A stretch of 64,000 nucleotides of DNA from Gnetum montanum (taxonomy: Eukaryota; Plantae; Gnetophyta), in contig MNCI01001656.1 of the NCBI GenBank assembly GCA_015680685.1, positions 62,001 to 126,000 of the forward strand. The letters are read 5' to 3'. The notes under the pieces were generated by a model. It saw only the letters and a list, made by a program, of their open reading frames with translations. It ran no database searches and was not told the DNA's origin. Shown piece by piece: positions 3,984 to 40,900 of the stretch. Numbering within the stretch: position 1 is the stretch's first letter; every line of letters starts with the position of its first letter. The position numbers and the translations under genes are program-made.

Positions 3984-4014
3984 TTGTTACCTTGCATTTG
4001 AGCCGAGCTGATGT

Positions 4015-12483: not shown

Positions 12484-12603
12484 CGTAGCTATATTGGCCA
12501 ACATTTTGTTGTAATGAAATGGATTAAAGGATAACATTCTTTGTTTTATGTGATATAAAGATTTTAATTTTTATGAAGTGAAACATATTGTTAGAAGGGT
12601 TAC

Positions 12604-12737
12604 ATGTTTTATGCCATTGCGGGCTGTTAATAGTTTAAGGTCATTTCGGGCTGGGCCATCATAAGCATAAAAGGGTATATAAAATTGCCAATTTTAGGCC
12701 ATAGCGGGCTGTAACTAGTTTAAGGCCATCTTAGGCC
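12604..12737 (-). repeat. Four stem-N6-stem motif copies downstream of the element A gag-PR
   Basis: GCC-ATTGCG-GGC (12613), GTC-ATTTCG-GGC (12640), GCC-ATAGCG-GGC (12698), GGCC-ATCTTA-GGCC (12724). Each is preceded on the plus strand by a TTT tract, as in the 3' UTR array. Confidence 0.75.
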
Positions 12738-12849
12738 ATAGTGCATATGAAAAAGCGTAATAAGGACAATGCAAAAATAGAGAGCGTAAATTGCATAACA
12801 GTAAATAATGTGGACTAATGTAACATGTTACGCCAACGTGTTTCATTGC

Positions 12850-16657: not shown

Positions 16658-16940
16658 AACTTGCAGCGTCCAAGGGTTTTTGAGGTTAGCATTGTCAACA
16701 GTAGTGGTTGATGTAGCCTTTCTCTATGTAGTTTGAGAGTAATGACAACAAAGATAAAGATCACAAGGGTAAAGATGAGCTAAGACAAAAATGGACTTTC
16801 TATCCTGTAGGATTTTAGAGGAATCATCAAAGCGACCGATCTATACCACACAATCTCGTAAACAACCACAGAGGTATTACATTTATGTCAATCGAAAATG
16901 GGTACAGAAAACTTATAGGACTACCCATGAAATGCAGATT

Positions 16941-16968
16941 GGAGGTTCAGGCCCTCCTTCTAGCGCCA
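16941..16968 (-). promoter_or_regulatory. Primer binding site of element A, complementary to 28 nt of tRNA-Asn(GUU) 3' end
   Basis: Plus strand GGAGG-TTCAGGC-CCTCC-TTCTAGC-G-CCA has exact T-arm, acceptor strand, discriminator and CCA geometry. It lies 6 nt from the LTR. The tRNA identity is from recalled plant tRNA-Asn sequence. Confidence 0.85.
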
Positions 16969-16974
16969 GAAAAC

Positions 16975-18278
16975 TATAACGACAAAAAACATCGGTCATT
17001 GGAAACACTGAACGAAATTCCGTGTACATAGTTTTAACCCCGGATCCGTACGAGGGCCGTGCTAGAGAAAAAATGAATCCGAGGTGCTCTGAATGGTCTT
17101 GTCAATCAGATAGGAACTTACTCAATCAGTAAATTTGCTAATGATTGTATAATAATGCAACGACTTAATATGAAAACATATTATCGATTTACGAGAAAAT
17201 GAGATTTTCTTTGAGATTGGATCTTGAAGGCAGTGAAGGTGGTGTAAATTATGCAAAATGATCATAAAATTAAATATAAACAAGGTGCAATGAATTGAAC
17301 TTTGAACATGCACAATTCCAAGATCTGGGATCTCCCTTTATAGATAAATAGGATAAAGAGAACGGGATTTACAAGCAAACTTTGGTTTGGACAAGGTATC
17401 TGCTACAAACAAGAAGCTAATCATAGATGAAACAAGCAAAGGCCGATCTACCTTGTTCTAGCCAATCTGAGCAGAAGGGAGTCAGACTTGAAAGTAAAGT
17501 GTTTACTAACTTGAAATCTTTGATCAAAGGCTCCTATAGATCACCATCGATGCTCTTCTATTGCTAACTCTTTCTTGCCGTCTCACTAATCTTGGCCAAG
17601 TGAATTTGTTAAAAATTTTCCAACAATTGCCAACTACTACCAATATTTGTGTCAAAATTGTCAACCCTTTGAGCATTATCTGTCGGGGTATTTATAAGAT
17701 TAGGGTTAGGAGAATAATGTAGTTTAGATGACACGTGTCCTTAGCCCAAAAAATACAATTGACTTGATGTGCCATAGCTGGAGTTTACAGCGTTATGCTG
17801 TGCTATGCTCTAGAGCATAATATGTCATAATCTACCCTTGTTTTTAGTGCTACAGGATATTTAGAGCTTCGGTAACAAATTGTCCTATGGTTACGCTACA
17901 ATACACTAGGGAGTGTATCGTGGTGTAAGAACCGCTAATGCTTGAATTTTTCTATCTCTGTTGTTGCAATTAAATCAACTGTCTGCTTGCGTTATGCTGT
18001 GTTATGCTACATTATGCTGCATAGCATAACGTGGTATAATATGCCAAAAGTTAATATTTTCAATCATGGAAAGCTTGCAAAGTCGAAGTGTTGTTGCTGC
18101 GCATCCCTCGTTTCTGTTCTGTCTTTTGGAGTCTACTACATTGACCTGTGTAGTGTAGCATAGTAGGCCCTTAGCCAAAAAAAGAAGACTTGCTGAAATG
18201 TACCACTTATGGAAATCCTTTACCTAAACTTCAAGAATTTGCTGAATCATTAAGGTCTCGAAATTTCATGGTGTTTCA
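16975..18278 (-). repeat. Element A 5' LTR (1304 bp)
   Basis: Colinear with 1085-2387; the inner terminus CA has mutated to TA; adjacent to the PBS. Confidence 0.95.
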
Positions 18279-18283
18279 GCTGG

Positions 18284-19220
18284 AAACCTTGGTGATGCAA
18301 AAACATCTCAAACAGTTATAGGACCACTCATTTCAGTACCCTATAGTAGCTAGTTCATGGATCAGGAAATTCCAAGTGAGCTAGAATCAAAATCTCATGT
18401 TGTACACTATCATTTTGTTGTAAATTGGCAACATTTGTGAGCTTGTCAAGCTCTTATGCTTCAAATTGTATGCATAAGCATAATGTAAATCAATACACAT
18501 TGTAAGATGTAGTGCATCCAGTCTAAAACATAGTCTACCTATGTCCAGTGCATACGAAGCTATACATCCGACACCTGTCACACGATCCATTTTTCTCTCA
18601 TCTCATAGCCATTGATCTCGTTCACAAATCGTACTCCTGAGCCTAGAGAAATGCATAAATACCCTGTTCATTGACATAAATGGGATTGGCAATTTTGCAA
18701 AAAAGGATAACCTAAAGAGCATTGGTAGGAAACCTTGGACGCTCGAGTGCACGTAATCTCTAGCACTTGAGCATCTACAAATGCTTCATCCTTCATCTCG
18801 GGGCTTGACGCTTGACCTGTCATCTACACACGGAACCAAATTTTGACCAGTGCACTTTATTCTCTAAATCAATACAATACAGTCTTTTACCATCCATTAT
18901 GTTGTTTACATTATTCTAGTTCATTACATTGATTACATTATTCTAGTTCATCATTTTACATTTACATCATTCTATTCCTTTCTTACATTACATCTACGCT
19001 CCATTTACATACTCGTGTTACATTTGTTATGATAACCCCAATGCAAGCCATAGCTTACGCTCAGGGAGTCCTTGGTTGATTTGTGTGCAGATCATCCAAG
19101 GCACTCTACCTTCATTTTTCCAGCTTGCCCTCATGCGAAGGCAGGGTCACTTGTGTATCTTCAGAGATCTTTCGGCATTCATTTTCCTCCAGCCTTACGC
19201 CGATGATTTCAGATGGTACA
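18284..19220 (+). repeat. Element B 5' LTR, right part
   Basis: Colinear with 35528-36465; ends GATGGTACA. The two parts total 1974 bp versus 1963 bp for the 3' LTR. Confidence 0.95.
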
Positions 19221-19225
19221 GAAAT

Positions 19226-19245
19226 TGGTGCTAGAAGGAGGGCTT
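19226..19245 (+). promoter_or_regulatory. Primer binding site of element B (tRNA-Asn)
   Basis: TGGTGCTAGAAGGAGGGCTT, 5 nt after the LTR end. Confidence 0.85.
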
Positions 19246-19562
19246 CACGTTTTCCATCTCGATTAAACATTGAACCATACCAATCTATTTACGATTGTAT
19301 TAAATCCTGCAAAATTTTTACGTTGTTGCAAATACAGTAAATTTTGTAACTGTAGCTAAAAATATTAAGTATAGCATGCACACACTATGAAAATCCAACA
19401 CAGTGTACACACACTATAAAGCCCAACACTACGTACACATGCTGCAAAGCCTAACACTATGTATACACACTGCTACGCACACCACGCACACACACTGCGT
19501 CGCATTGCGCTTATGCTGCGCACAAGCTAGCATATGCACGTTCAGGTTGCGCTCATGCTAAT

Positions 19563-19690
19563 GCTTATGCCCAACTTGCTCAAGCTCAGCTTGCATACGC
19601 CTAGCTTGCTCAAGCTTAGGTTGCATATGCCCAGCTTGCTCAAGATCAGGTTGCATATGCCCAGCTTGCTCAAGCTCAGCTTGCATATGC
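19563..19690 (+). repeat. 30-bp tandem repeat (about 4 copies) in the element B leader
   Basis: Unit approximately GCATATGCCCAGCTTGCTCAAGCTCAGCTT. A looser ~27-bp CACACT-rich repeat precedes it at ~19380-19475. Confidence 0.85.
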
Positions 19691-19728
19691 TGCTCACACA
19701 AATTCAGCTAGCCAAGCTAGTTACACAT

Positions 19729-22700
19729 ATGGAATCTTCTGAAATCAAGGAAACATTGCTCATTTCTAATATTAATGTCAAAATCTCAAATCCTGTGACC
19801 GCAACTGAACCCATAGTCACCGTTGAAGAGATTAATCCTCAAGGGCCAACTTGTTGGTTTCTTAGGTTACAAGGAAAGGAACCCACATATACAATTCTCA
19901 CCCCTAAAGAATACAACTTCATTTGTGTAAAGATCCAAGCTAACCTGCCCATTGATTACATAGACCCTTTAGCATATGACATAATTCCCCGCTCTGAATC
20001 CCATCATGAACTCATATCCCAGCCCCTCATGGAAAGGAATCAAACCTCACGGCAACCCACCATGGAGCCTCAAAACAGAGACGAGGAAGATGATTTTGCA
20101 ACTCAATCTAAGCATGGGGATTCGTACCACACTCTCAGTCCTCATACTTATGCGAACCCATTATTCCACCCTTTCACGGGAGAGACCATGCCTCTTCACA
20201 CATTTAAAAGCACTCAAGCACCTGTCTCTCAATAGGAAGCACCCACCCCCATTCCTACTTTCCCTACAATCAATACCCAATTCAATGCGCCCATCCTTGT
20301 CATTCCTCCAATCACCACATTACCCTCTCTTCCATAAGTACAATCCCAGAAACTCTCCTCTCAAGCTAATATAGGAGCAACCTTCCCACCCCAAATAATT
20401 GGAATGCCCTCCGTAATACCCACTTCTACATCTACTCATTATGTACCACAAGTGCAAATCCAAGGAACACCCTTCACCACTTCAACTCAACAGGTTCAGG
20501 GTGTTTCCTCACAGCTTGTAACTGGGTAGTGGCCCGCACTTGTCATTCAACAGCATCAACCGGCTCATTACAGCATACCACCTGTTACAATCCCATCCAT
20601 GAATGTCCCTCAAGTACAAACATCAACAACCCTACAGTTATCTTTCCCACAAACTACACAACAATCTAACTATTATCATGCTCAATCTAACTAACCAGCT
20701 GGTCCACCTAGTGCCCAAGAATGAGTAGAGGCTAGAAAAATGATGCAAGCATTGACCAATGAGGTAAAGCATCTGAAAATTACAAACACTGAAGTAGTTA
20801 AGGTGATGGATTTTTATCAGGATGATCTGATTAGCTCTTCAGTGCCACCATTGACTCTACCAAAAGGAATTTCATTGCTGCAGTTGACCAAGTATAACGG
20901 AGAGGGAGATCCAAATGCTCACCTAGTGACATTCTGATTAGAGTGTCTATTACTTTAGGCTTGGCCTCATGCAATTCTGCGTGTGTTTGCCATGTTCTTA
21001 ATTGGAAGATCCTTACATTGGTACCGAGCCCTACCACATAACTCCATATCCTCTCTAGAGGATTTGTTACATCAATTCATTACCTATTTTAAGTATAACC
21101 TAAAGCCTGAAGCCATGCTAGATAGTCTAATTCAAATAAAACAAGCACCATTAGAGCCTGTACAAAAGTTCATCCAAAGATGGAGCATTGCTCTTAATGA
21201 ACTTCAAGAGCCTATCCTGGAAATGTATTTACTGACAATCCTCAAGAGTGCCATGAATGATTTCATTAAGTCAAAACTCTATTATCTTAGCGCTCGTACC
21301 TTGAGTCAAGCATTTGTCCAAATCAAAAACATAGAAGAGGCAGCACAAATAAGTCATGTCCTAGCTTACCAAACTTTTAAAAGTCAATATACGAGGAAAG
21401 ATAAGGATAATTCTAAAATGACAGTCGCAGCAGTGGCAAAGACAGCTCGACCCAACAATGCAGGGTAGAAAGGGAAACAACCCACTACCCCCACTAGTCA
21501 TGAAAGAACCATTCCTGCACCTACACTTGAACCCTCCTCTACCCAAATTGCTAACACAAGTCATACTCGTACCTTCGAACAAAAAGATCCTTCCCAGTAC
21601 ACACCCTTACCTGTGAAGCCCTCACAATTATTGGACCAACTTCTAAAGGCTGGGTTGATTCAACATAAGAAGATGTCCCCTACAACATCTCAAAAACACG
21701 ACCGATCCTATGAGTTGGTTAAAAACCCAACATTGGCAATGGCTAATTAACCCCCTGTCCCAAGATGTTTTAGGTTAGACAGATTTTGTGAGTATCACCA
21801 ACAATGTGGGCATGGAACTGATTACTGCTTCGCCCTAAAATAAGACATACAACATATGATTGACAGAGATGAGATAGTCTTTGATGAAGCCAACCTAGTA
21901 AGACCTTAAAATTAGTCTATGGGGGTCTACAAAGATCCTCTTAACACCAAAGAGTCACCCTATGTGATTAACATGATCCATGTCGGCAATGAACAAGACA
22001 TCCCAAAGCATTTTTTCATTTGTGTGCCTGCTAAAACTGTGTCTACACCAACACCTCCACAAGCTCCTTTTTCTACATATACATATCCTACATCGTGAAA
22101 ACCATTCATCATCCAAGTGTACCCTGAGGTTGCAATAGCAAATGTGCCATCGCAAACTTGACCCATTCCATTTGTAATTCAGGTGCCAAAACACTCTGAT
22201 GTGTAACCCCCAACAATTCCCCCATGACCCTCACGAGAACACCTCACTGATAGAATGACCAGAGAATGTTTGGCCAAAGAACGTCATGGTCATCAGTTAG
22301 GATCACCAAAACCCACATTATTGAATGCTGTCCCTATGATTCCAACTACTGATCAACCTAGCATGAGTCATCAAGACAAGAACTCGAGAGTGTCTAGCAT
22401 CCCAAATCTAACAGCTACAATTAATAACGTAAAAACTCTTTCGTAAGAGATACAAATGTTGGGTCAAATGGATCAAGTTTCGACAGGTAAAAACATTCCA
22501 AATAGAAAATACTTGGCCAGTGCCCTGACCCAAGTTACGTAGGCCTTAAAACAAAAGAACACCTCTGTAAGCCTATATGACCTAGTGATGACCTCCCTAG
22601 TACATTGGGAAGCTCTAGTGCATATGTTGACTTCAATCCCTATTAGTGAAGACCTTCCTACAAATGAACCATCCATTTATGTTGTATTATCTCCACATCA

Positions 22701-23445
22701 AAAATCGAGGTCCACATCTCTAGGATTTCATGCCAATGACATTAAACAAGATGAAAAAATGGGAGAGGTCACCACTGCCCCTATGTTTATAACAATACAA
22801 GTTAATCAATTTAAGATACATTGGGTGCATGTTGATGATGGAGCAGCAACAAATGTGATACCTTTTCCTATGATTAAACGATTAGGCCTTCCGAAACAAA
22901 TACGGCCAACAACAACATCATTCTTGGAATCTTTCAGTGGTTCTCATGTCATGGTAAAAGGCATGGTCACCTTGGATTTCATAGTAGGGGACCAATTCCC
23001 CATGTCAGTCAAATTTGTAGTCATAGATGAGATGCTGAGGTTCAATCTGATTTTGGGACGGCCTTGGTTAGCTTAATTAAAAGCCATATCCTCACCGATT
23101 CATCAAGAAATCCACCTACCATATGAGGGTGATGAAATCATCATACACGGGGATGTAGCAACATCACTTACTTCCTCACACGTAGGAATGAACCAAGGAT
23201 CAGAGGTTGAATTATCTAAACCTAAGCAAGACACTGCTAGTGAAACCCTAGACATTGGTCAATCTCTGACCCGCGACCTTCCTAAAACAGAGGAAGCATC
23301 ATAAGAGGCAGACATAGGAGCCATTCCCAAAGATGTCCCTTGGTCAAAACTACCATTTGACATATCCAGTGAGGGGGATGATGAGTACAAGATCATGCTC
23401 GCACATCCCACCCTTCATAGAAAATTACAAAAGTTAAAGAAATAG
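19729..23445 (+). pseudogene. gag: Element B gag-protease
   Basis: WFLRLQGKEP; LTKYNGEGDPNAHLVTF; SLHWYRALPHNSISS; CEYHQQCGHGTDYC knuckle; protease VHVDDGAATNVI...FNLILGRPWLA; many in-frame stops. Confidence 0.9.
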
Positions 23446-23463
23446 ATAAAAAACTAGGATGAA

Positions 23464-23702
23464 CCACCACACATCCAGAATGATGTTAAACTACCACACA
23501 TTTGGAATGATGTTAAACTACCAAACATCTGCAATGACATTAAACTACCAAACGTCTGCAACGACGTTAAACTAGCCATGGTCAGAGATGACCAGTTCTT
23601 CTAAATTCACCGAAACAACTACTGTCTCGCTTTCTTTGACAAAGATGCAATAGTCCACCATGACTTTAAATTGATATGTGTGGCCCAAAATGGCCTTAAA
23701 AT
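23464..23702 (+). repeat. Motif array after the element B gag-PR stop: four 27-bp units plus 2-3 dispersed copies
   Basis: CATC-CAGAAT-GATG-TTAAACTA; CGTC-TGCAAC-GACG-TTAAACTA; GTC-CACCAT-GAC-TTTAAATT (23653); GGCC-CAAAAT-GGCC-TTAAAAT (23682). Confidence 0.85.
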
Positions 23703-24019
23703 ATAGCATAATACATTACCATTTTACCAAAATCTTGCTACGGCATTCTCTCTTACATTTTGCAAATTACAATTTTAGTTTATCTTATGTTTACCAGTCA
23801 TGATTCCAGTTTGCGTTTACGTTCAAAAATAAACTTGAAAAAAAAAACAAAACAAAAGATATAAATATATATAATATGGAGTGTTAACATGGCAATAGGA
23901 TGATGACATATTACACCATGATCATGGTTATATTTGTTCTCATACATCCCAAAAAACAACAAAATGAGCTGAAAAACTAAAGAAAAACTGACAAAAAATG
24001 AAAAGACTGACAAGCTAAA

Positions 24020-27000
24020 TCATGCATTAGTATTAGGAGGGGGCTGGTCCCCAAACTCCCCTACATCATCAACTCTCGTCCCACTGGGGCCAACCTTACC
24101 AAAACCATGTCCCTATCACAAAAAGAAAAAAAAACAACAAAATAAGGAAACACACATAAATAGATTAAAAGAGCAAAAAAACTAAGGAAAATGATGATGA
24201 CTAAAGGCAATAAAACGATACAAGACTAAAACACTCATAGGTGAGCAAGGCCTAAGATTAGCTTCCAGACGTCATAGAATCTCTTCTTTGGGCACACAAG
24301 CCCTTCTCTCTCGAGTCTAAGGTCAACATTGGCTAAGGTTTTACCCTTGTCTGCTAAAGTCCAGGAGGGGCATTCAAGGGAAAACATACTTGTTGAAGCT
24401 TCCCTAGAGGCAGTGATAATGGATCTCTTAGGAGACCCACCCACTTCAGTACACTCAAAAAACTTGTCATAAGAAGAGTGCAAGCCTAATCCTTCAACGA
24501 ACATCTCCAACTGACAATGTTCAACTGATTTCTCTTTCAACCATTTCTTGTATTGATGCTTATGATCATTCTAATCCTAGCCCCATTTACGTACTTTGGA
24601 TGCAAAAGACTTCCAGTCATGGCACTTCTTGTCCAATAAATCCATCTGAGCCCTCTGTTCGGCCAAATCCTGAGTTGCCTGCACCTTGCTATTTAAGATT
24701 ATCCAATAATGTGCATAGGTGATCTCTGACGTACGCCAAGTACTATCACCGACCAGTCTAGCAGAGGCAAAATCATAATTGGCTTGCAAGTCATTCCTCT
24801 CCTCTGTTACCTTCGTCAAATTTTCCTTCAATGATTGAACTTCATGCCATAAGTGTTCAATTGAGCACCTACAAGTCCAGAGAGACTTGGCATTTGAAAC
24901 AAGACAACCCAAAACTACATCATAAATCCCTCTTGGGATTTGCTCAATATCTTTGGGAAATTTAGGGAGACCATCAATATGGGTGGCCTCGAAAGGGTTC
25001 CATTGAAGCTTTGCACCTACAAGTACAAACATCACACATATGAGCTAATAAGAGATTGCCAATAGATGCAAAAGCACAATCAGCTTAGGCACTTGGTATA
25101 GAGTACATACCTAATTCAGGATGAGCCTGTTGTAGATGAGTAACAACATCATTGACGATGCCTGTAGCAAAGTCTACTTTTTTGGGCATCTCAGGCCATG
25201 ACCTCAATTAACTAGTAGATGTTGGATCTACATGGGAAGGCACCTCAATTGAGGCCTATAACTCCAAAACATTTGCCTAAGATACATGTGCTTCAGATGC
25301 TTCATCATCCACGTCTGGTGTCAGGAAGAGTCATGACAATCAAAATAATGTGCAAAGCTAAGAAGTACAAAATGCAGATCAAACTAACAAAACATACTAA
25401 GAAGCCCTTTGCTGGTCAGCTTAGGTGGATCACCAAGGTGTAGAGATCCATCAAAGAAGCTGTCAAAAACACCTTTCTCCTCACTTGAATGATTAAGGGC
25501 ATCTAAAGCATCAACAAGTGTCACTTCCATGACATATGTTTCATTCCCTCCCTGTAAGATGGAAATATCCTCAGCTATTTCTTCTCTTATTTCTTCCTCT
25601 TCATTTACCCCAATGATAACTATTTCAGGTTCTCCCATTGGAGCTAATTCTTCCCTTTCCTTCTTGGGTATATCCTCTATGATCACCAATAAGTCTAAAG
25701 TTAGCATGACATAATAGGTATGCATACTTAAGAAAGAAAATAAAATCAAAAAGCGATAAAAACACTTAAAGTAGAAAAATACTTACCTGCTCCTGGCAAG
25801 ATGAATTGGATCTTCTTTGCTTTCAGCGGTCTTGCCTCCATAGTAGGTTCCCTTGAATGCTAAGCTCTCCTAACAGTTGTGTGCAATTTAGATGGTTCTA
25901 ACCCCAAGCTATCATGCGAATGGTGGGAATGACTAGCTGCACCCTCTATTGTGATGGAGACTAATTCTTTGATGCCTTTGGATGGATCTTGGTATCTAGT
26001 GATGTTAACTAGATGATAGATCTAGGGGCGAGACAATTGTGAATGATCCGTTAACACATAATGGCTATCTCCATAGACCACTAAGAACTCAACAAACCTA
26101 CGGAGATAGCCTGCGAAAAAGGCAAAGGTGAAATGGGATCTCGCATCAACATTGGAACGTAGCCTGATGATCTCTCCATAGATCCCTAACCCAAGGAACT
26201 GTGCCCAATCGTAGTGCATACCAATCTCCAAGACTAAGTGCATAACATGTGTAAACTCAACCCCAAGACTTCTCGCCTAAGAAAGAGACTTAGGAAATGG
26301 TCATGCTCTAAAGAGTGGATACAGAAAATTTACCTCCATCAAATGAGTATCAGCTTGCATGGCAAAATCCTTAGGATCCCATGGTACACCTAGCCAGTCT
26401 TCAAGTTCCTTGATTACATGGCCTTCTCTAGTTGCTCTATCCACTACCACCTTAGCACCATCTACTGGTACACCAAAAAGATCGAAAAAGAATTCAGTGG
26501 TTAGATGGAAAGATACCTTAACTCCCTGAACTCATGTAGTAAAATATGAGACATCATCATTAAAAGAGTCAACGATGGAAACCATTTTAGTCATGGGAAT
26601 GTTAGGAGTCAAGGCACTAAATAGGTCCATCAAGCTCGCATTTGTAAGGTGGTTGATGATTTTTTTAGGTGCCTTCTTGTGCAGCCACCATTATGACTCC
26701 TCTGTCTCTTCAAACTTCATGAAGAGCATAGCCTCAGTGCACCCAGATATGTCGGTAACCTCATTAATGGAAATTGCCACTGTAGAAAAGACAAGGAAGA
26801 CATTGAGCAAAAAGTTAAGAGTATGATAAGCAATGATGTTACAAAAATGAAAACCAAGCCTGGAACACAATCATTCACCATTAGCAAATGGAGTAGGCAC
26901 ATTTGGTGTAGGATCAACCATTTGGGGAAAAAATGGCCTATCAAGAGATCAATCCTCATGCAACTAGCTGTGAACTTTACAACGTTCAAAGGCCCTAGAA

Positions 27001-27681
27001 AATTTCCTAGGATAATTGACAATAGCACCCTTGGTTTGATCTAGCACCACAACACGAAGAGTGGGGCCCATCATGAATGCCTCCAAGGCTATGAGTGCTA
27101 AGGGAAGCCCACTATCATCCTCATGCAATCCATAATCATCAACATGGAGCCTGCAAAGGAAAAGTATTCATACGTAAACAATGATATAACATTAAAGGAA
27201 CCAAAGTTAAGATAAGTATAAAAGAGCATACCTATCTATTCTGTACACTGTTCTAGGAGGATTTTGGAACAACTTATGCACATGGAAAGCTAGAAAAAGA
27301 GTGCTACTACTGTTGTAATGGCTGCAAGATGATAATCTCCACACACGGGTCAAAGGACATGTGGATCTAGGACCTTTAGGAACACCTCCCTCGACTGTAT
27401 ATAGTCCCTCGTCTATGTCAAGAATGAAGGCTAACATGCCTCATGTTGAGCCAGGTAACATGGTCTCAACAATATCACGAGTCAGCTGCTCGCTCAAGTG
27501 AGACCATATGACAATGTTGAAATTCTGCAAAATAAATGATAGAAATGTAGTAACATTTGGATGAAACCATATTACATGCTGCCCGATCTGCATGTCATAA
27601 CTAGGCATGTTCGGTCCCAAAAGGCCAAACCAAGATAGCACACCAACAAGTTCAACCACCAGGAGAAAAGGCTTAAGTCCC
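24020..27681 (-). pseudogene. Antisense intron-containing accessory gene of element B, homolog of 8681-12483
   Basis: KPFLLVVELVGVL...IWFHPNVTTFLSFILQNFNIVIWS...YNSSSTLFLAFHVHKLFQNPP; FFDLFGVPVDGAKV...HYDWAQFLGLGIYGEI. GT-AG introns at 27151-27231, 26780-26878, 25677-25786, 25315-25397, 25017-25110, plus ~24113-24238 with a mutated donor. Confidence 0.85.
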
Positions 27682-29531
27682 CTACATAGCGCTAGAACCT
27701 TAGGTAAGTGAATTAAAATATATAAAACACATAAATTGAAAATAAAATAAAATAAGGCAAATAAATAAACCCAAAAAGTAAATAATATTCAACACATACA
27801 AGACCACCCCATGAGACAAGGACATCAATGTTTATTTGATGAATTTAACACTCGCTGGGGTACATTTAAAAAATTCATTTCATAGTAAACCAACAAACAA
27901 GTGTGAATACAAAACATGTACATTCATTGTCTAACCCAAGAAAGTAAAAATAAAAGGATACAAATAACCAACAACACTAAACGAATAAGTTACTCATGCG
28001 CTAGTTCCAAAGAATTCACACTGTAGTGCATATTGTAGTAAAATTTAGAGGGGAATTCAATCACGATGCAGCTCACGCTGCAACCCACAAACACGGCTCA
28101 TGCTACTACTCACAATGTAGCTCACGCTGCAACCCACATAGTGGTAGAACTTAGCTAACGATGGAGAGTAACTCATGCCCATACTACAAAAATTGCGGTT
28201 TTCTCTAGAGCGCTCATGCCTAGGAAAAAATTGGTAAAAATAACAGTTTTCTCTGGAACACTCATGCCCTGTCCCTCCCAGACACCCACGTTCATACTAT
28301 ACCCCACATCTATTGGTAATGCACAATGAGCTTGCCTTGCATTCCCATATCCTTCCTCTCTACAGCAGCTCACGCTGTGCCTAACATTTCATCAACATCG
28401 ACACCAAACTTACCACTCCGCACATGCTTGGTAATGTCACATAAAACCCTCAATCATGCTATCCACATCCCCTTAAAACCTCCATGCATGCCTTACACAT
28501 TCATGCACCCAACTCATGCCCTCACCACTCACGCTGGGCATCCCCTAGGTTGCTCACGCTGGGCGTGCCTTGGGCTACTCACACCAACTGATCCTCTTCA
28601 ACCAATAAATCATACAAAAACAAGAAATTTTGTAGGAATGTGCTTTGTCCATTACTTACACTACCCACACTCATGCCATCGTCCAAAATAGCAATGAACC
28701 CAAAGAATGGCAAGACCCAAAACCCTGTAATGTCCCTGACGCCCAAAATTTACAGCAACGAAAAAACTGCGATATAAAACCCCAAAATCAACAAAAATTT
28801 CATGCTGAAATTGTCACAAAGTGGTGGCCCTAATGGCTCACGCTGCACCTATGCTATGATTAAATGATGTCAAAACAAGAACATACTTGCATAGGGTCCC
28901 TGCCCATGACAAAATCCTGGGTTGAGGAAGGTGTTGAAGTAGTTGTTCGCTCTCCTTTGCGAATGATAAGCTAGCCTGCTTCTTCTCCTTGCCTTGGCTT
29001 GATTTCTCTTTCCCCTTCATCATTGCTAACGCTACTCACACTTTGTACTGTGGTTTCAAGGTTGCTCACACCACTCATGCCACTCACGCTCTATACCATG
29101 GTCACGCTGCTTCTTGCTCACGTTGCTCACGCTATAGAAGTTTACTCACGCTGGCCGCGTCGTTGCCCTCCAAACAAAGACACAAATGACATTCCTTTAC
29201 TTTGAAACGTCTTTTAAACCCCCCCTTTTGTTCATCCATTTTATTTTATTTCATTTTCATCCATGTTATGATTACCTTGTGCCTTATTTTGTTTTATTTT
29301 CATTATGATTATATGTTGTTGTAGTCTTATTTTTTGTAGTACTATATACACCTACACATAACATAAAAAAAATATAGCAAGGACATCACTGGCCTAGTAT
29401 GGCCTACAATTGCCATTACATTCCACAATTTCATTAGACTAATTATGTGAAATTAATCTACATTTAAAATCTTCTTCATCAAGAAAATGTTGCTTACTTC
29501 ACTCTCGGTTTAAATTGGTAGGAGCAACATC

Positions 29532-32500
29532 ATGGCAACCAAGAATAACTTATCAACATTGTCTCTCAATGGAGCACTAGAAAAGTAACAAGGACAATAA
29601 ATCTAGAATCCTTGGATCTAGACCAATCCACCTACACAAATTTAATAGTGTCCACTCAAGAAATGTTGGATTGGTTTGAAAACATGATGAGGACCCTAGA
29701 TCTAGAGGCCGACAATATCACTAAAGATCCTCTTACTAAATTCTCTATTGCCACTTCCAAAGATAAAACTAGAACATTAAAATTAAGTGTCTTACTAGAC
29801 ACACAACTTGCTAGTGATATCACTCAGGTTTTGAAAGAAAACATAAAGACATTTTCATGTTCTTACACTGACATGCTAGGGTTGGACCCTCGAATCATCT
29901 AACATAACATCATCCTTGATGAAAAAATTAAATCAGTGAAATAAAAGGCCCAAAGGGTTAGACCTGAGGTAGCGTTAGTAGTTCGTGATGAAATCACAAA
30001 GCTCTATCAAGCTGGTTTCATCTAGGCTATTGAATATTCTGACTAGATATCAAACATTGTTGTTGTCCCTAAGAAAAACGGTAGTATACACATATGCATT
30101 GACTTCCATGATCTCAACATAGCCACTATAAAGGATGACCTCCCACTACCCAGCATCGATAAACTCATTGACACAACTGCTAGGCCTGCATTTTTATCCT
30201 TTATGGATGGATTTTTGGGATACAACCAAATAGGAATCAATCCAAAGCATCAACTCAGAACTACCTTCATGACACCTTGGGGCACATTCTGCTATACAAT
30301 GATGCCACTCCACCTTAAAAATGTAGGTGCTACGTATCAATGAGTAACAACATACATATTTAGTGATTACATGCTTGACTTTCTCAATGACTATGTTGAT
30401 GAAATTTCAGTTAAATCTAAAAAAATTGAACAACATGAAAATGATTTAGACTTAGTGCTTAAACGTTGTCTTAAACATGACCTTAGAATTAACCCAAATA
30501 AGTGTGTCTTTGGTGTTAAAATAGGTAGAATGCTTGGCTTTGTGGTCTCCACAATAGGGATACGAGTAGACCTTGATAAGGTTAAAGCAATAACTAGTCT
30601 ACAACCACCTAGGAACCTCACCGAATTACGTGGTCTGCAAGGTAGATTGTAATTCATCAAGCACTTTATCGCAAAAATTATGAATAAGTTAAAACCCATG
30701 CAGCACTTACAATGAAAGAATGTGCATTTCCAATGGACTCAACAATGCCAGGAAGCATTTGAAGACATAAAAATGGAGTTGGCTTAACTACCAATAGTTC
30801 AACCCCCACAAAGTGATAAATTTTTTTACATCTACCTCGCCACATCCAATTGATCTATTGCATCCATGCTTTGCCAAAAATGAGAAGATGGAATCAAGAT
30901 CCCTATTTACCTATGAACAATGATACAATGATGTGGAGAGATTATGTCTTGCCCTGGTCTTTTCCTTGAAAAAGTGATGACATTATCTCTTCTGTAACCA
31001 AGTCTATATCATTTGTAAAGATAATGTGCTTCAAGCTATCACTAACAATGTCTATGAATCAAGTGGGATAGCTAGATGGAAAGTGATGATCGCTGAGTTT
31101 GACCTACACTATGTAACTCAATCCTCCACTAAAGGTCAAGTAGTAGTTAATCAATTGGCCATTTCACCAACACAATATTAAGCAATAATTAATCTCGAAT
31201 TCCCTGATGAAAGCATTAACAACATCAACACTATACCTGATAACTACGATGCAATCCTTTACTTCGATGGGGCTTCAACTTCCTGAGGAGGAAGTGCTGC
31301 AGCCATCATAATGTATCCTTTTGGAGAAATTTGATCCTTTACCTATCGAATAACATTCCCTTGTACCAACAACATGGTAGAGTACGAAAGTCTTCTTAGA
31401 GGTCTTATAGCAACACTAATTTCTGGAATCACACGTCTTGTAGTCCGAGGAGACTCACAGTTAGTAATCAATCAAGTCATAGAGGTTTATGCATGCAAGG
31501 CTTCTCATTTACAATCATACTGTGACCTAACTAAAAACTTGCTAAAAAAATTGATCAATGTAGATGTGCAACATATTCCTAGGAATGAAAATACCATCGC
31601 CGATGCACTTGCTACACTAGCCTTAAACATGACACCTGAGATGTTACATATGTTACCTAGTTCCATAACAAATTGTATCAAACCTATAACTGATGCTCTT
31701 GATGAAATACCCATAGCATCCATCAGTACTACACAAGCAATAGAATGGTATGATGACATAAAAGAGTACCTTCTACAAGGTGAACCACCACAACATTTGA
31801 CGAGTGCTCAAAAGGACGCAGTGCAAAAACACTCTCGGCAATATGCATTAATAGGAGACACATTATGTCGTAGATCCTATGAGGGTATTTTTTTGGTGTG
31901 AATTAATAGCCTCGATGGCCAAATAATCATGAAATAGGTTCACGAAGGACTTTGTGAAGGGAATATAGCACCCAAAGCAATGGCAATGAAAATTAGACGT
32001 TTGGGTTACTGCTGGTCACACATGAAGTACGATTGCTTGTCCAAGGTTAGAAAATGTAACATTTTTCAAAAGCATGGTAACCTAATACATGTGCCACCTA
32101 ATGAGTTTTATACTGCACAAATCACATGGCCATTCCAAAGATGGGGATTAGACATCATTGGGCCGATAACACCACCATCTTCAGGAGGACATAGCTTCAT
32201 CATCATGGCAACCGAATATTTCACAAAGTGGGTGGAAGCTATTCCTCTTAGAAAAACCATGTCTAAACATGTTTGCAATTTCATATTAGAAAACATCGTG
32301 ACCCGTTTTGGTATCCCCATGGCCATAGTCACCAACAATGGACCACAGTTCAGTAGTATGGATACTAAAAGCTTCTGTGAAAGCCTAGGTATTAAGCACT
32401 CATTTTCATCACCATACTACCCATAGAGCAATGGTCAAGCAGAATCTATGAACAAAACGATCATCATGGTGCTCAAAAAGATGTTGAATCAAAGCAAGAG

Positions 32501-32983
32501 ATGATGGCATGAGCAGTTAATCTATGCATTATGGGCATACTGAACAATGCATTGAACGTCCCAGGTAAGACACCATATAGCCTTGTATATGGATCTAAAG
32601 TTTTGTTACCCTTGGAGTTACAGGTTCCCTCATTTCGGACAACACTCTCCAGCCTCCTTGATGAAATCCAGAACAATGAGCTATGTGTTGCTGACCTTGA
32701 CTCGATGGAGGAAGAAAGAGTACGAGCCCTTGATCAAATCGAATGGTATCAGAGAAAACAACGGTGACGCCATCAACATAATCCACATAAGTGTCTGATC
32801 AAGGACGGTGACCTAGTTATTAAGGTGGTCCACAAACACTTGGATAAATTCTCAGCTAACTAGGAAGGATCTTACTTAGTCACCAAGGCATATGATAATG
32901 GGGCATTCAAAATCACCAACATGAATGGAAATGAATTCGCCAATCCTACAAATCACATGTATCTAAAACCATACTACGTTTGA
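29532..32983 (+). pseudogene. pol: Element B pol: RT-RH-aRH-INT
   Basis: SFMDGFLGYNQI, DYVDEISVKS; aRH LYFDGAS, TNNMVEYE, GDSQLVINQV; INT WPFQRWGLDIIGP, EYFTKWVEAIP; ends MYLKPYYV*. Confidence 0.95.
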
Positions 32984-33003
32984 TAAGCTTAAGTTATGCT
33001 TCG

Positions 33004-33310
33004 GTCCTGGCATCATGACCTAAAACTAATACCAAAAAATGGTCCTAGAGCTATGACTTAAAACTAGCACCACAGAATGTTTTGGCATCATGAAAATAAA
33101 CTGACACCATAGAGCTTTGTCCAGTATGATACTAAACTACCACACTTGTCCACCAGAGTCGACTACGACTATAAACTAGCTTGCCTCTTCATAGTTCACT
33201 ATGACTATAAACTAGCACTGCATCATTTGTTACGATGATAAACTGGCAACATGCAAAGGATTATGGTGTGAAACTAATCCACAATAGTTCACTAAGACTA
33301 CAAATTGGCA
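33004..33310 (+). repeat. 3' UTR array of element B: 9 units of the same stem-loop+AAACT motif, period 31-39 bp
   Basis: AAACT-type cores at 33023, 33061, 33098, 33134, 33173, 33209, 33240, 33271, 33302. Example unit: GTC-GACTAC-GAC-TATAAACTAG. Confidence 0.85.
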
Positions 33311-34489
33311 ATATCATCAACAACCTAGCATTATTTGAAAATACATGTTGCTGCAATCGGTTGTATGTGCTCACCAAGAAACTGACGCATGATTTTTCAC
33401 ATAGACCTTGATGAAATTGATGTTGTTCAAGATTTTGTGCACCTTGAAGCTCCACATGATGGCTCCATTCCATTGGCTACATTCTAGTTGAAAATGTTTA
33501 CCTAACTAAATCATTTGTGATTTTCTTGTCCCCTTGGAGTTGTGTTTGTAGGATGACATACTTGAGGCGTTTGCACACAGATGCACTTCATCATGATGAC
33601 AAGGTATCACATTCTTCCTAATGCACGTAACTGGGTTAATCAATTCATTCATAAGTACATTCCCAAATCCTGATACATCCCCTATTTCCCCATCATGTCC
33701 CAATTATCCTATTTAATTACATCCCTTGGACACATTCTACTCCCCCAAAGCTCTTGATACATTGTTGCACACTATGATCCTCTAAGTAGTTGCAACACAA
33801 AACACTGTACATGGTGCATGACACAAAAGGCAGGTGCTCAAACATGAGCAAGGCACAAAAAGTAGGCTCTTTTAAAAATACCAAAAGGAAAAAGAAAAAT
33901 AAAGAAAAAACAACGCAAAAACAAAAGAAAAGAAGAAACAAAGAAAAAGGAAAAGAAAACAAAAAGGTCAAAGAGAAAAATGCATGGAAATGGTCTTCAT
34001 GACCCTGTTGACATCATAGACTAAAGACCATTGGCTCTTCTCATACAAACCTAGGAGAGAAGGCAATTGTCTTGGAAAAACACTCGTGTCTCAAATGATC
34101 ATGTTGCACATCATCATGTGGCTTTGGTTGTTTACAACGGGCTCCCTTAAACATGACACAAGGGTCTCGTTTCTCCAAAGAATCCACATCCTATGCCTTG
34201 GTTCCAAGTTTGCTATACATTGGCTATTGACAAGGACCAAAAATTGGCTTGTTCACATGAGAGCATTCCTCTCCCGTAGTTCAAACAATGACATCCTTGA
34301 TCAACTCCTGACTTCCCCCAATTACAATCCCTTGCATCTTGAACCACATTTACTCAATCCCATGTTCTTTTGAAAATGGTGCGATGACATTTGGGCAATG
34401 GCCAATGGACAATGCTTGATTCCAGGTCGATCGTGGTGTTTTGTACTTCTTTGTCGATGCCTCTCGGGTGAATTCCTCCAAACGTCAAC

Positions 34490-34502
34490 AAAGAGGGGCC
34501 AA
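34490..34502 (+). promoter_or_regulatory. Polypurine tract of element B
   Basis: AAAGAGGGGCCAA directly before the LTR start TGAAACA. Confidence 0.85.
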
Positions 34503-36465
34503 TGAAACACCACAAAATTTCAGCTCAACACTTTGAAACAAGAACAAACCAGTGAATCAACACCCAAAGGTTAAAAAATTAGACTAATGTGCATGAATCT
34601 TGTCATGCACGCCGAGGCCATGCTCAAGTCACGCTACCAGCATACGTGTAGTGTGCACACAGCCTGCATACAACATGCACAACCTTCGAAGCTTCAAAAT
34701 CAGGTTAAAATAGTTCTAATTTGAATGGGAAAGACCCCCTTGGGGCCCACTGATGATTATTCCAAGTTTTAGCATCCAAAATCCAAGATTTCAAGTCAAA
34801 ATCACACAAATCTTACTACTCACACTGAGGTCACACCTAGGTCACGATGACAGCGTGAGTCCAGCATGAGTCCAGTGTGAGTAACCAAAAATAGCTCTAA
34901 AAAATGTTAAAATAGCCTAATTTTGAGGGTGCAAGGCCCCCTCAAGGTCCACTAGTTATTTCTCTAGGTCCCAGCCCTCAGAATTCTAATTTTGGGCTCA
35001 AAAATACATCATTTTTAGCACTCACGCTAAGGTCAAGCCTAGGTCACACTAAGGTCATGTTGATAGCGTGAGCCCAACATGAGTTGCCAAAATAACCTGA
35101 ATCAAGGTACAAATAGGCTCAAACTTAGCTTGCAGGTCATCCCCAAGGGCAAGCGGTAGTTACACTTGAAAGAAAGGTCTCAAAAAATCAAGATTTGGTG
35201 TGAAATGAACCATCCTAGCTTGCTCACGCCTAGGTCATGATGACGACATGAGCCTACATGAGCTGCCAAAAGTGACCTAAATCCAAGCAAAAACATGCTC
35301 AAATTGAATATACAAGACATCATCAAGGTTAAATAGTAGTTACACTTTAAAAAAAAGTATTAAAGGTGAAATCTTGATGCAAAATACATCATTTTTGGTC
35401 GGTCACACTGAGGTCATGCCCAGGTTACGCTGGCAGCATGACTCCAGCGTGAGCATTGGTCATGACCAAGACAAAGCACTTTAGACACATGCTGAGGGCA
35501 TGCCAGGATAAGATCAATGTATGTTGGCAACCATGGTGAAGCAAAAACATCTCAGACAGCTATAGGACCACTCATGTCAGTACCCTGCAGTAGCTAGTTC
35601 ATGGATCGGGAAATTCCAAGCAAGCCATAATCAAAATCTCTTGTTGTACACTATCATTTTGTTGTAAATTGGCAACATTTGTGAGCTTGTCAAGCTCTTA
35701 CACTTCAAATTATATGCATGAGCATAATGTAAATCAATACACATTATAAGATATAGTGCATCCAGTTTAAAATGTAGTCTACCTATGTCCAGTTCATACA
35801 CAGCTATACATCCAACACATGTCACACCATCCGTTTTTCTCTCATCTCACAACCATTGATCTCGTTCACAAATCCTACTCCCGAGCCTAGAAAAATGTAT
35901 AAATACCTTGTTCATTGACATAAATAGGGTTGGAAATTTTGCAAAAAAGGATGACCTAAAGAGCATTGGTAGAAAACCTTGGACACTCGAGCGCACGTGA
36001 TCTCAAGCACTTGAGCATTTGCAAATGCTTCATCCTTCATCCCGGGGCTTGACACTTGACCTGCCATCTACACACGTAGCTGCATTTTGACCGGTGCACT
36101 TTATTCTCTAAATTAATACAATACAGTCCTTTACCATCCATTACACTGTTTACATTATTCTAGTTCAATATGCTGATTACATTATTCTAGTTCATCATTT
36201 TACATTTGCATCATTCTATTCCATTATTACATTACATCTATGCTTTGTTTACATACTCGTGTTACGTTTGTTATGATAACCCCAGTGCAAGCCATAGCTT
36301 ATGCTTGGGGAAGTCCTTGGTTGATTTATGTGTAGACCATCCAAGGCACTCTACATTTGTTTTTCTAGATTTTCCTCACACGAAGGCAAGGTCACCTATG
36401 TCTCTCCAGAGATCTTTCGGCATACGTTTTCCTCCAGCCTTACGCTAACAAATTCAGATGGTACA
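34503..36465 (+). repeat. Element B 3' LTR (1963 bp)
   Basis: TGAAACACC...GGTACA; colinear with 48-1084 plus 18284-19220. Confidence 0.95.
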
Positions 36466-39447
36466 ACACATTCCTATTTCATCGATTCAAGGTCAGAAAT
36501 GTGCAATTTATCACTTTGGATTTCATCAAGAAGGCCTAAGAGAGCTATCCGCAATGAGGGAACTTGTAACTCCAAAGGTAAAATAGCGTCAAATCTGTAT
36601 ACAAGACTATATGGAGTTTTACCTGTAGATGTTTGATGTGTCATTCTGTATGCCCATAATGCATAGACTAGTTTTTTGTGCCATTGCCTCTTACTCTAAT
36701 TTAGCATTTTTTTGAGCACCATGATGATAGTTTTTTTTGTAGCCTCCTCTTGACCATTGCTCTATGGGTATTAAGGTGATGAGAATGCATGTTTAATACC
36801 TAGGCTTTCATAGAAGCTTTTAGTATCCGCATTGCTGAATTGTGGCCCATTGTTGGTAACGATGGTTATCAGAAAAACAAAATGGGTCATGATGTTTTCT
36901 ATTATGAAAGTGCAAACATGCTTAGAGGTGGTCTTCCTAAGGGGAATAGCTTCTACCCATTTTGTGAAATATTCAGTTGCAGTGATAATGAAGCTATGCC
37001 CTGCAGAAGATGACGACATTATTGGTCCAATTAAGTCTAATCCCCATCTTTGGAATGACCATGTCATTTGTGTTTTTTGCAATTCATTAGGCAGCACATG
37101 TATTAGGTTACCATACCTTAGGAAAATGTCACATATCCTAACTTTGGAGAAGAAATCGTATTCCATGTGTGGCCAGTAGTAGCCCAAACACCTAATCTTT
37201 GTTGCCATTGCTTTGGGTGCTATGTGCCCTCCACAAAGTCCTTCGTGAACTTTTTCTATAATCGTTTGACCATCGATGGTACTAATGCACATAAAAAAAA
37301 TGCCTTCATAGGATTTGTAACACAATGTACCTCCTATTATTGCATATTGCTGAGAGCATTTTCACACTATGTCCTTTTGAGCATTTGTCAAATGTTGTGG
37401 AGGTTCACCTTGCAGAAGGTACTCTTTTATGTCATCGTACCACTCTATTGCATGGGTTGTGCTAATGGATGCTATGGACATTTCATCAAGAGTATTTATT
37501 ATAGGTTTGGCACAATTTGTTATAGAGCTAGGCAACACATGGAACATTTTGGGTGTCATGCTTAGGGCTAATGTAGCAAGTGCATCAGCAATGGTGTTCT
37601 TGCTTCTAGGGACATGTTGTATATCCATGTCTACTAATTTCTTTAGCAGATGTTTGGTCAAATTGCAATATGGTTGCAAATGGAGAGCCTTGCATGTGTA
37701 AACTTTTGTGACTTGATTAATGACTAACTGTGACTATTAACATTCTCATCGAGGAATTCAGTGTTAATCATTGCTTGATCATGCATTGGCGAGACAGTCA
37801 ATTGTGTGACTATTTCTTGACCTTTTGTGGAGGATTGAGCAACATAGTGTAGGTCAAACTCTACGATCATTGCTTTCCATCTAGCTATCCTACTTGACTC
37901 GTAGATGTTGTTATTGATGGTGCGGGCACATTATTCTTGCAAATGATGTAGACTTGATTACGGAAGAGATAATGCTGCCATTTCTTTAAGGAGAAGACAA
38001 GGGCAAGGCATGATCTCTCCACATCATTGTATCATTTTTCATAGGTGATTAGCACATGGCTTAAGTAATAGATGGGGATCTCGATTCCATCTTCACATTT
38101 TTGGCAAAGCATCGATGCAATGGAAGAACCAAAGGTTGCAAGATAGATGTAGAAGGGTTTATGGCTCTGTGGGGGATAAATCGTCAGCAGTTGAGCCAAC
38201 TCTTGCTTTATGTCCTCAAATGCTTCCTGGCACTGTTGAGTCCATTAGAAATGCACATTCTTTCATAGTAGGTGTTGCATGGATCTCAACCTATTTGTGA
38301 GATTTATGATAAAGAGTCTAATGAATTGTAACCTAGCTTGTAGACTACGTAGTTTGGTAAGGTTTTTTGGTGGTTGCATGTTAGTTATTTCCTTAACATT
38401 ATCAGGGTCTACTCATATCCCTATTTTAGAGACTATGAAGATGAGAAGTTTGCCCATTTTTACACCAAAGACACACTTCTTTTGATTGAGTTTGAGGTCA
38501 TGTTTGAGACAATGTTTAAGAACTAAGTCTAGAGCTTTTGCATGTTGTTTGGTTGTTTTGGAGTTAACTATGATGTCATCAACGTAATCATTGGGAAAAT
38601 TGAGCATGTAATCACTAAATATATATGTCATTGCTCGTTGATATGTAGCACCTATATTTTTAAGACCAAACAACATCATCGTATAGTAGAATGTGCCCCA
38701 AGGTGTCATAAAGGTTGTCCTGAGTTGATGTTCTGGGTTGATTCTTATTTAATTGTAACCTAAAAATCCATCCATAAAGGATAACAATGCGTGCCCAGCA
38801 GTTGCATCAAAAAGTTGATCGATACTAGGTAGCAAGAAGTCATCCTTTATCGTGGCCATTTTAAGATCATGGAAGTCAATGCATATGCGTATACTACCAT
38901 TCTTCTTAGGGACTACGATAATGTTTGATACCTAATCAGAATAGTCAATAGCTCAGATGAAATCAACTTGGTAGAGCTTTGTGATTTCATTACAGACTGC
39001 TAACACCACTTCAGGTCTAATCTTTCATACCTTTTGCTTCACAGGTTTGAATTTTTCATCGAGGATAATGTTATGTTGGATGATTCGAGGGTCCAACCCT
39101 AGCATGTCGGTATATGACCATGTAAATGTTTTTATATTATCTTTCAGTGCTTGAGTGATGTCACTAACAAGTTGTAAGTCTAGCAGGGCACTTAATTTCA
39201 ATGTTTCAGTTTCATCATTGGACATAATAATGGGAACTTCAATGAGAGGATCTTCAGTAATATTATCAACCTCTAGATCTAAAGTCTTAGCCACATTTTT
39301 AGACCAGTCTGACGTTTCCTGAGTGGAGGCTATTAAATTAGTGTAAGCGTATGGGTCTAGATCCAAGGATTCTAGCTTGATTACTCTTTTTACTTCTCTG
39401 TGTGGTCCATTGAGAGACAATGTTGAATGGATATTCTTGGTGGCCAT
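36466..39447 (-). pseudogene. pol: Element C pol (RT-RH-partial aRH-INT), interrupted by B
   Basis: MTPWGTFYYTMMLFGLKN, DYVDDIIVNS, VHEGLCGGH, EYFTKWVEAIP. The N-terminal half of aRH is deleted near 37735. Confidence 0.92.
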
Positions 39448-40900
39448 GTGCTTGCTCCTACCAATTTAAACTAGGAGCGAAGTGAGTACATTGGCTTAAC
39501 GAGGGAATTGTTAAATGCAAATGAGCATAGAGTAATTAATCTATGGACTAATGAAATTGCAGAATGCAACAGTAGTCTAATGTCATACTTGGACCATATG
39601 ACAATTTTAGGCCATACCGGGCTGGTAATATTTAGTGTTATGGATGAGTGTACGGAATATTGTTAATTTCTATGTTTTGTGCAAAAAACAAGTCTATGGG
39701 ATTTTATAGTTTTATGGATTTTCATGCACGCCNCAATGAAATAATGAGGAATACTATGTAAGAGTGAAAAAAAGATGTAAATAATAATATGAAAGCAAAA
39801 GTTAATCCTAAAACATGATAAATTATTAAAAATAAATAAATAAAATAAAATAAATAAAATAAATAAACAAAATGGAAATGAAGATGGGAGTTAAAAAGGG
39901 GATTTTGAGGTAAAGGGGCGTCATTTGTGCTAGCATGAGTTCTTGGGCATTTGGATTGTAGTGTGAGCAAACTAGAGAGTGCAATGTAAGCATTAGCGTG
40001 AGTTGCAGCATGAGTTATAGGAGTAGCAATGAAGGGCAAAGGGAAAGCAAGCCAAGGCAAAGGGAAGAGGCAAGCAAATTTGGCGTTCATGGAGGAGAGT
40101 GAAGAGCTACTTTAGTGTCTCCCTCAAGCAAGAATTCCAGCATGGGATGGAGCTCTACGTAGGTTCATTTCTTCTTGTTTCTTTTTGGTATTTTGTGAAT
40201 AGCATTAGCTAGGGCAGCATGGTCTCTCATGGCCACTATTTTCTGCTGTATTTTCAATGTGATTTTGGGTTTTTTCTACCATGTTGGATCAAGATGGTTT
40301 TCTATGTTTTTCTTGCTACGTTTGGGGGGGGGGGGGGGGGGGGGGTGGAGATCAGGGCTTGTACTAGGGTTTATGTTTTGCCGACTAGTAGCATGAGCAC
40401 ATTGACGTGAACTCAGAATGAACACCCATGGCATTGTGAGTCCAGGGTAGCATGAGTGTAGGGTAGCGACAGTGTGTGTTTCCTTGGAGAAACCCCAACA
40501 TGAGTGCGTTGCAGGGTAGGTAGCGTGAATCCCTAGGGGTAAGCTCAGCTTGAGTGGTCAGGGAAGCGTTGCGTGAGTGATAGGAAAAAACCATAGTGTG
40601 AGTTCCTGAGAACCAGCAGCATGAGTTCTTGAGAACAGGCTCAGCATCAATTAGGATAGTGTAGCATGAGTGCTGAGAACAGGCCCAGCATGAGTGCCAG
40701 GAATAGGCCCCAATGTGAGCACCAGGGACATGCCTAATGTGCATTGTAGGGAAGGCCCTAGTGTGAACAAATTGATGTAAAACCAATGCAAAAAACCAAG
40801 GTAGTGTGAGCTACAGGGCGATGTGACTGTAGGTAGTGTGAGCTACAAGGTGGCCCAGCATGAGCACTAAGAGGAAACCCCAGTGTGATTTAGCACATGG
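36466..40900 (-). mobile_element. Element C: 5'-truncated Tat element closely related to B (pol plus ~1.4 kb of upstream spacer)
   Basis: Pol 39447-36466 aligns with B pol by eye. 39450-40900 resembles B 28000-29530. No accessory gene, gag or 5' LTR remains. The right boundary is approximate. Confidence 0.85.

Follow-up and report, generated by a model that had tools for sequence, protein, structure and literature searches.

Several described retroelements approach the organisation reported here. Ogre elements (Ty3/gypsy, non-chromovirus OTA, Tat) keep the protease (PR) with gag, apart from the block of reverse transcriptase, RNase H, second RNase H and integrase (RT-RH-aRH-INT). The splicing of the spacer between them is established; according to PMC6317226, this spacer averages 274 bp and the primer binding site (PBS) corresponds to tRNA-Arg in 89% of cases (supplement 5). 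In the dual-RNase H, 'retrovirus-like' structure #1 of Tat elements from non-flowering plants (clusters such as Tat J/K; PMC10508981, PMC13468544), the aRH lies between RH and INT as it does here; the available parts of these surveys describe no long PR-RT spacer, and the words 'antisense', 'intron' and 'spacer' have no occurrence in the available text of PMC13468544. Retand, Grande, RIRE2 and Tat III/V carry a conserved antisense accessory gene, with tandem repeats in long non-coding regions, and foamy viruses (Spumaretrovirinae) produce Pol apart from Gag through a spliced mRNA. The present analysis concerns 64,000 nucleotides of Gnetum montanum (assembly GCA_015680685.1, contig MNCI01001656.1, positions 62,001 to 126,000 of the forward strand; hereafter the window), which contain three copies, designated A, B and C, of a Tat-type Ty3/gypsy family. 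In A and B, an antisense gene separates PR from RT.

The locus has a layout in which gag-PR is split from RT-RH-aRH-INT, an antisense gene common to A and B in the interval, and a conserved acceptor-like block followed by an ATG ahead of RT. We consider the splitting of PR from RT by an antisense gene to be a new variant of the Tat organisation; the feature is real, and separate production of Pol is the favoured, though unproven, reading of it. Judged from the sequence, the chance that a separate spliced mRNA, whichever promoter is used, yields RT-RH-aRH-INT by translation from its own ATG appears slightly better than even. The likeness to Ogre includes the aRH in the RH-INT interval, an element size of 17–19 kb and, in B and C, an AG|G acceptor that is open in phase 2 and comparably far ahead of RT. 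The differences are that the spacer here measures 5.4–6 kb and holds a nested antisense gene, compared with the short Ogre average cited above and 205–220 nt in the control loci described below, that an ATG follows the acceptor, and that in our tree the starred angiosperm clade does not include the RTs of these elements. In Retand, Grande, RIRE2 and Tat III/V the extra open reading frame (ORF) lies between pol and the 3' long terminal repeat (LTR), whereas here it occupies the PR-RT interval and is apparently multi-exon. Foamy viruses, an unrelated lineage, share with these elements a Pol made apart from Gag by splicing (predicted here), but foamy Pol includes PR and derives from an LTR-started RNA, while here PR stays with Gag and an internal start is predicted. 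The literature search, which included the available parts of PMC4408406, PMC11963269, PMC12786077, PMC6431247 and PMC5580714, revealed no plant element with a PR-RT antisense gene or a separately initiated pol; since most subscription papers and the 2011 extra-ORF survey were outside its scope, absence from print is not established, and the element table and FASTA file of PMC6317226 may hold such elements.

PR and RT are 5.4 kb apart in A and about 6 kb apart in B. In B, a multi-exon antisense gene (24235..29023, minus strand) begins with an ATG at 29023 and has candidate splice sites, which are donor-like at 28886, 27228, 25786 and 25110 and acceptor-like at 27151 and 26780. The homologous gene of A (8053..12150, plus strand; 3' end approximate) begins with an ATG at 8053, and the first antisense exon of C (40029..40158, plus strand), with a B-like N-terminus, is followed by a donor-like site at 40159. 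The tblastx comparison revealed collinear antisense blocks along the spacers of A and B with 32–43% identity, and two pieces of the antisense protein could be aligned between A and B by BLASTp at 37% and 35% identity (E-values of 4e-34 and 5e-44). Matching exon ends carry donor-like sites (27228 in B and 9127–9131 in A; 25110 in B and 11245 in A), and the first exons begin with MMKGKEK, MKGKGK and MALKTKGK. The collinear homology together with the donor-like exon ends indicates that a real and probably spliced antisense gene occupies the PR-RT interval. An earlier note on this DNA had proposed either that a 6-kb intron hosts a nested antisense gene or that an internal divergent promoter drives pol in one direction and the accessory gene in the other. 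A spacer of that size holding an antisense gene is supported here, and the antisense and pol ATGs stand head-to-head in all three elements, with gaps of 509 (B), 582 (C) and 591 nt (A). Scanning of the exons, unjoined and decayed as they were, gave no credible Pfam or PDB match for the antisense protein and no Pfam match to Transposase_28 or the plant mobile domain.

Two kinds of short repeats were observed around the antisense gene. A TGGCC-type motif at 29384..29418 (plus strand) of B, before the acceptor, has relatives at 23675–23709 in B, 39596–39630 in C and 12598–12754 in A (12754, 12717 and 12632). The motif flanks the antisense cassette, directly past gag-PR on one side and approximately 130 nt ahead of the pol acceptor on the other, and the score between the copy past PR in A and the copy before the acceptor in C was reached by 0 of 500 shuffles. 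The pair may represent a duplication produced by cassette insertion or a repeated binding site. CTCACGC/CTCATGC heptamers crowd the first antisense exon, with 11 in 701 nt (28000–28700) and 4 in 195 nt (29026–29220), and 7 occur in 741 nt near the first antisense exon of C (39900–40900); the window-wide rate is 0.4 per kb.

The acceptor-like block of B (29482..29521, plus strand) has a branch-like A at 29496 and an AG ending at 29521, followed by the ATG at 29532. In C (39445..39497, minus strand), the AG ends at 39458, with the branch-like A at 39483 and the ATG at 39447. In A (7460..7514, minus strand), the AG ends at 7475, with the branch-like A at 7500 and the ATG at 7462, which has a TAA immediately on its 5' side. 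These AG and ATG positions, and the TAA of A, agree with those in the earlier note; the AG block and the ATG are conserved in all three copies, the phase in A differing by one base, and the reported AG-to-ATG spacing of 10 (B), 10 (C) and 12 nt (A) is literally correct but hinges on that single base. When the sequences were compared without gaps and anchored at the AG, B and C agreed at 25 positions between −40 and −3, of which A matched 15, a level that 3 of the 7707 remaining AG sites attain; two other intervals gave 22 and 31 of 7707, the intervals having been picked after the data were seen. Five 45-nt blocks farther upstream were at background, with 11–18 matches each. The identity between B and C rises from about 0.45 to 0.8 right before the AG, and a TNAC motif with its A at −26 is present in all three elements. 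An in-frame TAA common to B and C, six codons 5' of the ATG, indicates that the block is non-coding, and the block looks like a 3' splice site. The ATG is in the RT frame in A and C and aligns there as residue 1, with no further in-frame Met until codon 72 in A and codon 75 in C. In B, a single-base frameshift follows about 45 nt past the ATG. All three pol ATGs carry a G at +4, a good initiation context. The arrangement exceeds chance expectation: YAG|G was found 8–14 nt ahead of 117 of 2301 ATGs (1–41000, both strands), and 27 of the 2301 had G at +4 in addition.

The full mechanism that we prefer combines the ATG with an internal divergent promoter and a leader intron of approximately 125 nt, and we give it somewhat less than an even chance; the weights attached to this and the other readings are judgements and not computed values. 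The 500–600 nt between the head-to-head ATGs (29024..29531 in B, from antisense ATG to pol ATG) would form a divergent promoter. The pol transcript would then lose a leader intron terminating at the AG. The predicted introns measure 125 nt in B (29397..29521, plus strand, GTATGG...TAG, 70% AT), 131 nt in C (39588) and 124 nt in A (7598); GTA sites thus stand 124–131 nt before the AG in all three, and the introns are of ordinary size with 65–70% AT. Translation of Pol would begin at the ATG behind the acceptor, the LTR-driven full-length RNA would act as the genome and also as the mRNA for gag-PR, and Pol, lacking a protease, would be packaged in trans instead of as a Gag fusion. The arrangement in its widest form, with an LTR-driven gag-PR, a central divergent promoter for the protease-less Pol and the intron-bearing accessory gene, and RT and INT that at no stage are joined to Gag on their way into the particle, is a still more tentative proposal. 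This preference is based on the conserved block with its A at −26, the nearby ATG with G at +4 and the lack of a gag-PR donor common to A and B; the antisense gene, unlike the gag-PR end, retains donor-like sites at matching exon ends. The antisense gene would itself need a promoter in or beyond the head-to-head region. An internal promoter for it is plausible given the precedent of the maize Grande antisense accessory gene (gene23), which has its own promoter (PMC7264820).

Several observations weigh against this mechanism. The TATA-like sites stand at unequal distances of 179, 251 and 458 nt, the first being that before the AG of B, the donors of the short introns score 3–4 of 7 in a crude consensus count, and the GT of the short intron in A lies away from the homologous position. 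The pyrimidine tract is weak (0.59–0.65), additional AGs occur within the last 40 nt before the site, and the comparison covers two independent lineages only, both decayed. When four raw G. montanum RNA runs were mapped to B (18281–34500) at 80% likeness, yielding 5504, 823, 615 and 586 reads per run that were mostly short and less than 90% alike, no splice joint was observed, antisense introns included; the depth was below 1 at 29101–29641, which leaves the test powerless. The sole joint listed, from 33034 back to 33004, is not a splice. The further points against it concern the resemblance to Ogre: in B and C the AG|G is open in phase 2, the same as in the Ogre intron, the acceptor-to-RT distance of 339–340 nt is within about 12 codons of the 304 nt in Ogre, and a phase-2 donor candidate in the style of Ogre is present in A, with the T content rising from 0.25 to 0.39 beyond it.

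These resemblances form the core of the best supported rival, an Ogre-like fusion, which we regard as unlikely on balance. The 5.4–6 kb spacer as a whole would be a phase-2 intron that has expanded and carries the antisense gene. Its splicing would take out the gag-PR stop and yield Gag-PR-RT-INT, and the ATG would encode an internal Met or a secondary start; the established splicing of the Ogre spacer (PMC6317226) is in its favour. The controls were 7 of 47 metagenome loci, matched to the Populus model P0013 splitting at residues 812/813; the seven are mutually related and not independent, and their intron was placed from the model and the literature. The first exon base was G in 7/7 and the phase-2 frame was present in 5/7, as in B and C, so the AG|G, the phase and the similar distance to RT in these two elements fit an acceptor inherited from an Ogre-type ancestor. 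The gag-PR stop lay within an intact GT donor in 4/7 controls, and the AG was intact in 3/7. The donor candidate of A (12826..12833, minus strand) has the same pattern, with a phase-2 GT at 12831, the TAA stop of gag-PR within it and T-rich DNA beyond. However, same-frame stops already occur at 12887, 12851 and 12845, a G ahead of one of several close stops arises easily by chance, and no counterpart of the 12831 candidate was found in B. A search of the gag-PR end likewise revealed no donor common to A and B. Two other candidates were rejected, namely a GT with a TGA at 12887 in A, which aligns to an Arg codon in B, and the pair of phase-1 GTs, at 23369 in B and 12934 in A, whose positions differ by one codon and whose phase is wrong for a common donor. 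The gag-PR end of B also contains about four copies of a 27-nt unit (23470–23575) that is open in two frames, and A seemingly has one similar unit.

The earlier note had held that the phase difference and the TAA of A argue against a PR-RT fusion. This argument is suggestive and not strong, since the distances from the AG to an anchor in RT are 339, 339 and 340 nt, A and C differing by a single base (339 versus 340), and since the TAA sits in one decayed copy among other premature stops; both facts count in favour of the fusion. Against it, a one-base post-insertion indel in the 36 nt concerned would be expected in just 1–6% of copies, a low but not negligible rate, and B carries such an indel 45 nt past its ATG. 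The fusion also leaves the Met straight behind the acceptor in both lineages unaccounted for. Ogre controls had their first ATG at +50 (6/7) or +34 and none earlier, and the first in-frame Met was codon 29 in the five that keep the frame; the ATG right behind the acceptor, absent from these loci, thus supports an independent start of Pol. In addition, the protein models of the Cryptomeria relatives show no such split.

A foamy-virus-like arrangement would also give pol its own ATG, with the mRNA starting at the 5' LTR and a leader donor being spliced over gag, PR and the antisense gene to the AG. It accounts equally well for the acceptor, the ATG and the free phase, foamy pol is made that way (PMC7828637), and donor-like sites are present in both LTR/leader regions. 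We nevertheless consider it improbable, because no leader donor common to A and B was found in the 5' leader, the intron would span about 10 kb, and the antisense gene already requires a promoter beside the acceptor; no such joint was found in the RNA reads from 18281 onward, though that test was powerless. Least probable is a reading of the AG block as a relic or as a different kind of signal (a promoter element, RNA structure or protein-binding site), with pol coming from an internal transcript that is not spliced or arising by reinitiation. The weak pyrimidine tract, the extra AGs, the lack of joints in the RNA reads (a powerless test) and the promoter elements that the region must also carry for the antisense gene would suit it. 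Against it, conservation is anchored exactly at the AG with TNAC at −26 in both lineages, between which the upstream DNA shows no detectable likeness.

The RNA reads gave further observations on B. In oligo-dT runs, reads of a diverged relative match 28920–28955 in the first antisense exon (39–41 in X5 and 28–29 in X6) and 23479–23520 at the gag-PR end (48–56 in X4). In run X1, the reads on 18281–34500 were mostly first-mate-on-plus across gag, spacer and pol, that is, in one direction, the polarity of the library not being established.

Relatives of the elements were sought by several routes. Searches with the pol N-terminus gave relatives in 0 of 541 and 0 of 419 candidates. The RT search returned 51 proteins, in which the best E-value belonged to Cryptomeria at 48% identity, and no close family member was included. 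In the RT tree (31 rows, midpoint root, long branches, no named reference lineages), A, B and C grouped together with support of 100/100, outside the starred 23-row angiosperm Ogre clade. The nearest RT found was that of Cryptomeria (45–49% identity), the grouping having support of 92/73 and no star. Viral contigs yielded 0 relatives among 2 pattern matches, and of 47 metagenome loci, none of those longer than 3.5 kb had an antisense-piece match. Two metagenome loci, L006 (7243–8265) and L007 (9965–11902), contain RT pieces that reach 54% identity to the query, with no gag, PR or antisense match in 7–10 kb upstream, and could be long-spacer or truncated elements.

The three elements are adjacent or nested. 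Element B (48..36465, plus strand), a Tat-type Ty3/gypsy element with termini read from the sequence, has its 5' LTR at 48–1074 and 18281–19220, split by A, and its 3' LTR at 34503–36465 (84.5% and 89% in self-BLAST). Element A (1087..18278, minus strand) lies inside this 5' LTR, with LTRs at 16977–18278 and 1087–2387 (86.4% identity in self-BLAST). Element C (36480..40900, minus strand; 5' end approximate) consists of pol and the first antisense exon; gag-PR was not found upstream of its pol, and C is 5'-truncated. Self-comparison and terminal sequences showed that B adjoins the integrase end of C and that A is nested in B. A PBS is located at 19226..19243 (plus strand) in B, with a near-identical counterpart in A. 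It may correspond to tRNA-Asn, and presumably not to tRNA-Arg.

The gag-PR of B (20959..23455, plus strand, by Pfam; the 3' end is uncertain, at 23455 or 23602) includes Retrotrans_gag at 20959–21465 and an aspartyl protease at 22543–23073. The pol of B (29532..32980, plus strand) consists of the ATG, an N-terminal linker, RT, RH, aRH and INT, interrupted by stops and frameshifts. The second RNase H was identified by Pfam as RVT_3 at 31335–31898 (E-value 1e-16) in the RH-INT interval, which places the elements in Tat, and A and B both have the LTRs, PBS, polypurine tract and gag-PR-RT-RH-INT order of Ty3/gypsy elements. The interval from INT to the LTR is just 1.5–1.6 kb. B and C are 78% identical and thus represent a single lineage, while A is a second one (RT 59–63% identical). 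The copies compared are those of the 64-kb window, and none of the three is intact: indels and premature stops run through all of them, with 3/384, 10/439 and 8/504 stop codons in the RT frames. The LTR pairs are 85–89% alike, differ mostly by transitions and have 1 to 6 indels per pair.

Elsewhere in the window, 60900–64000 contains a more distant gypsy element, which we presume to be Athila-like from its motifs. Its RT (63227–63981) is 27–37% identical to Tat proteins and was rejected as a fourth copy. An inverted gag-like relative is present at 41586–42115, where the upstream part of C is lost. A 130-nt tandem duplication (95%) in the gag of A (15362–15623) has an N at its junction (15492) and is possibly an assembly artefact. 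The AT-rich part of the window has an 81% direct repeat (49227–49780 and 55007–55580), and a run of 584 N at 53949–54532 yields spurious ORFs.

LTR retroelements normally fuse Pol to Gag, which sets the ratio of the products and packages the enzymes, and foamy viruses are the known exception. Even if Pol were produced here as a fusion, a PR-RT intron of some 6 kb with a spliced antisense gene nested inside would be a layout absent from the available parts of the surveys covered, and REXdb groups extra ORFs as 5' or 3' only. If the separate production of Pol is true, a stand-alone, protease-less plant Pol would represent an independent solution and would pose the question of how Pol enters the particle.

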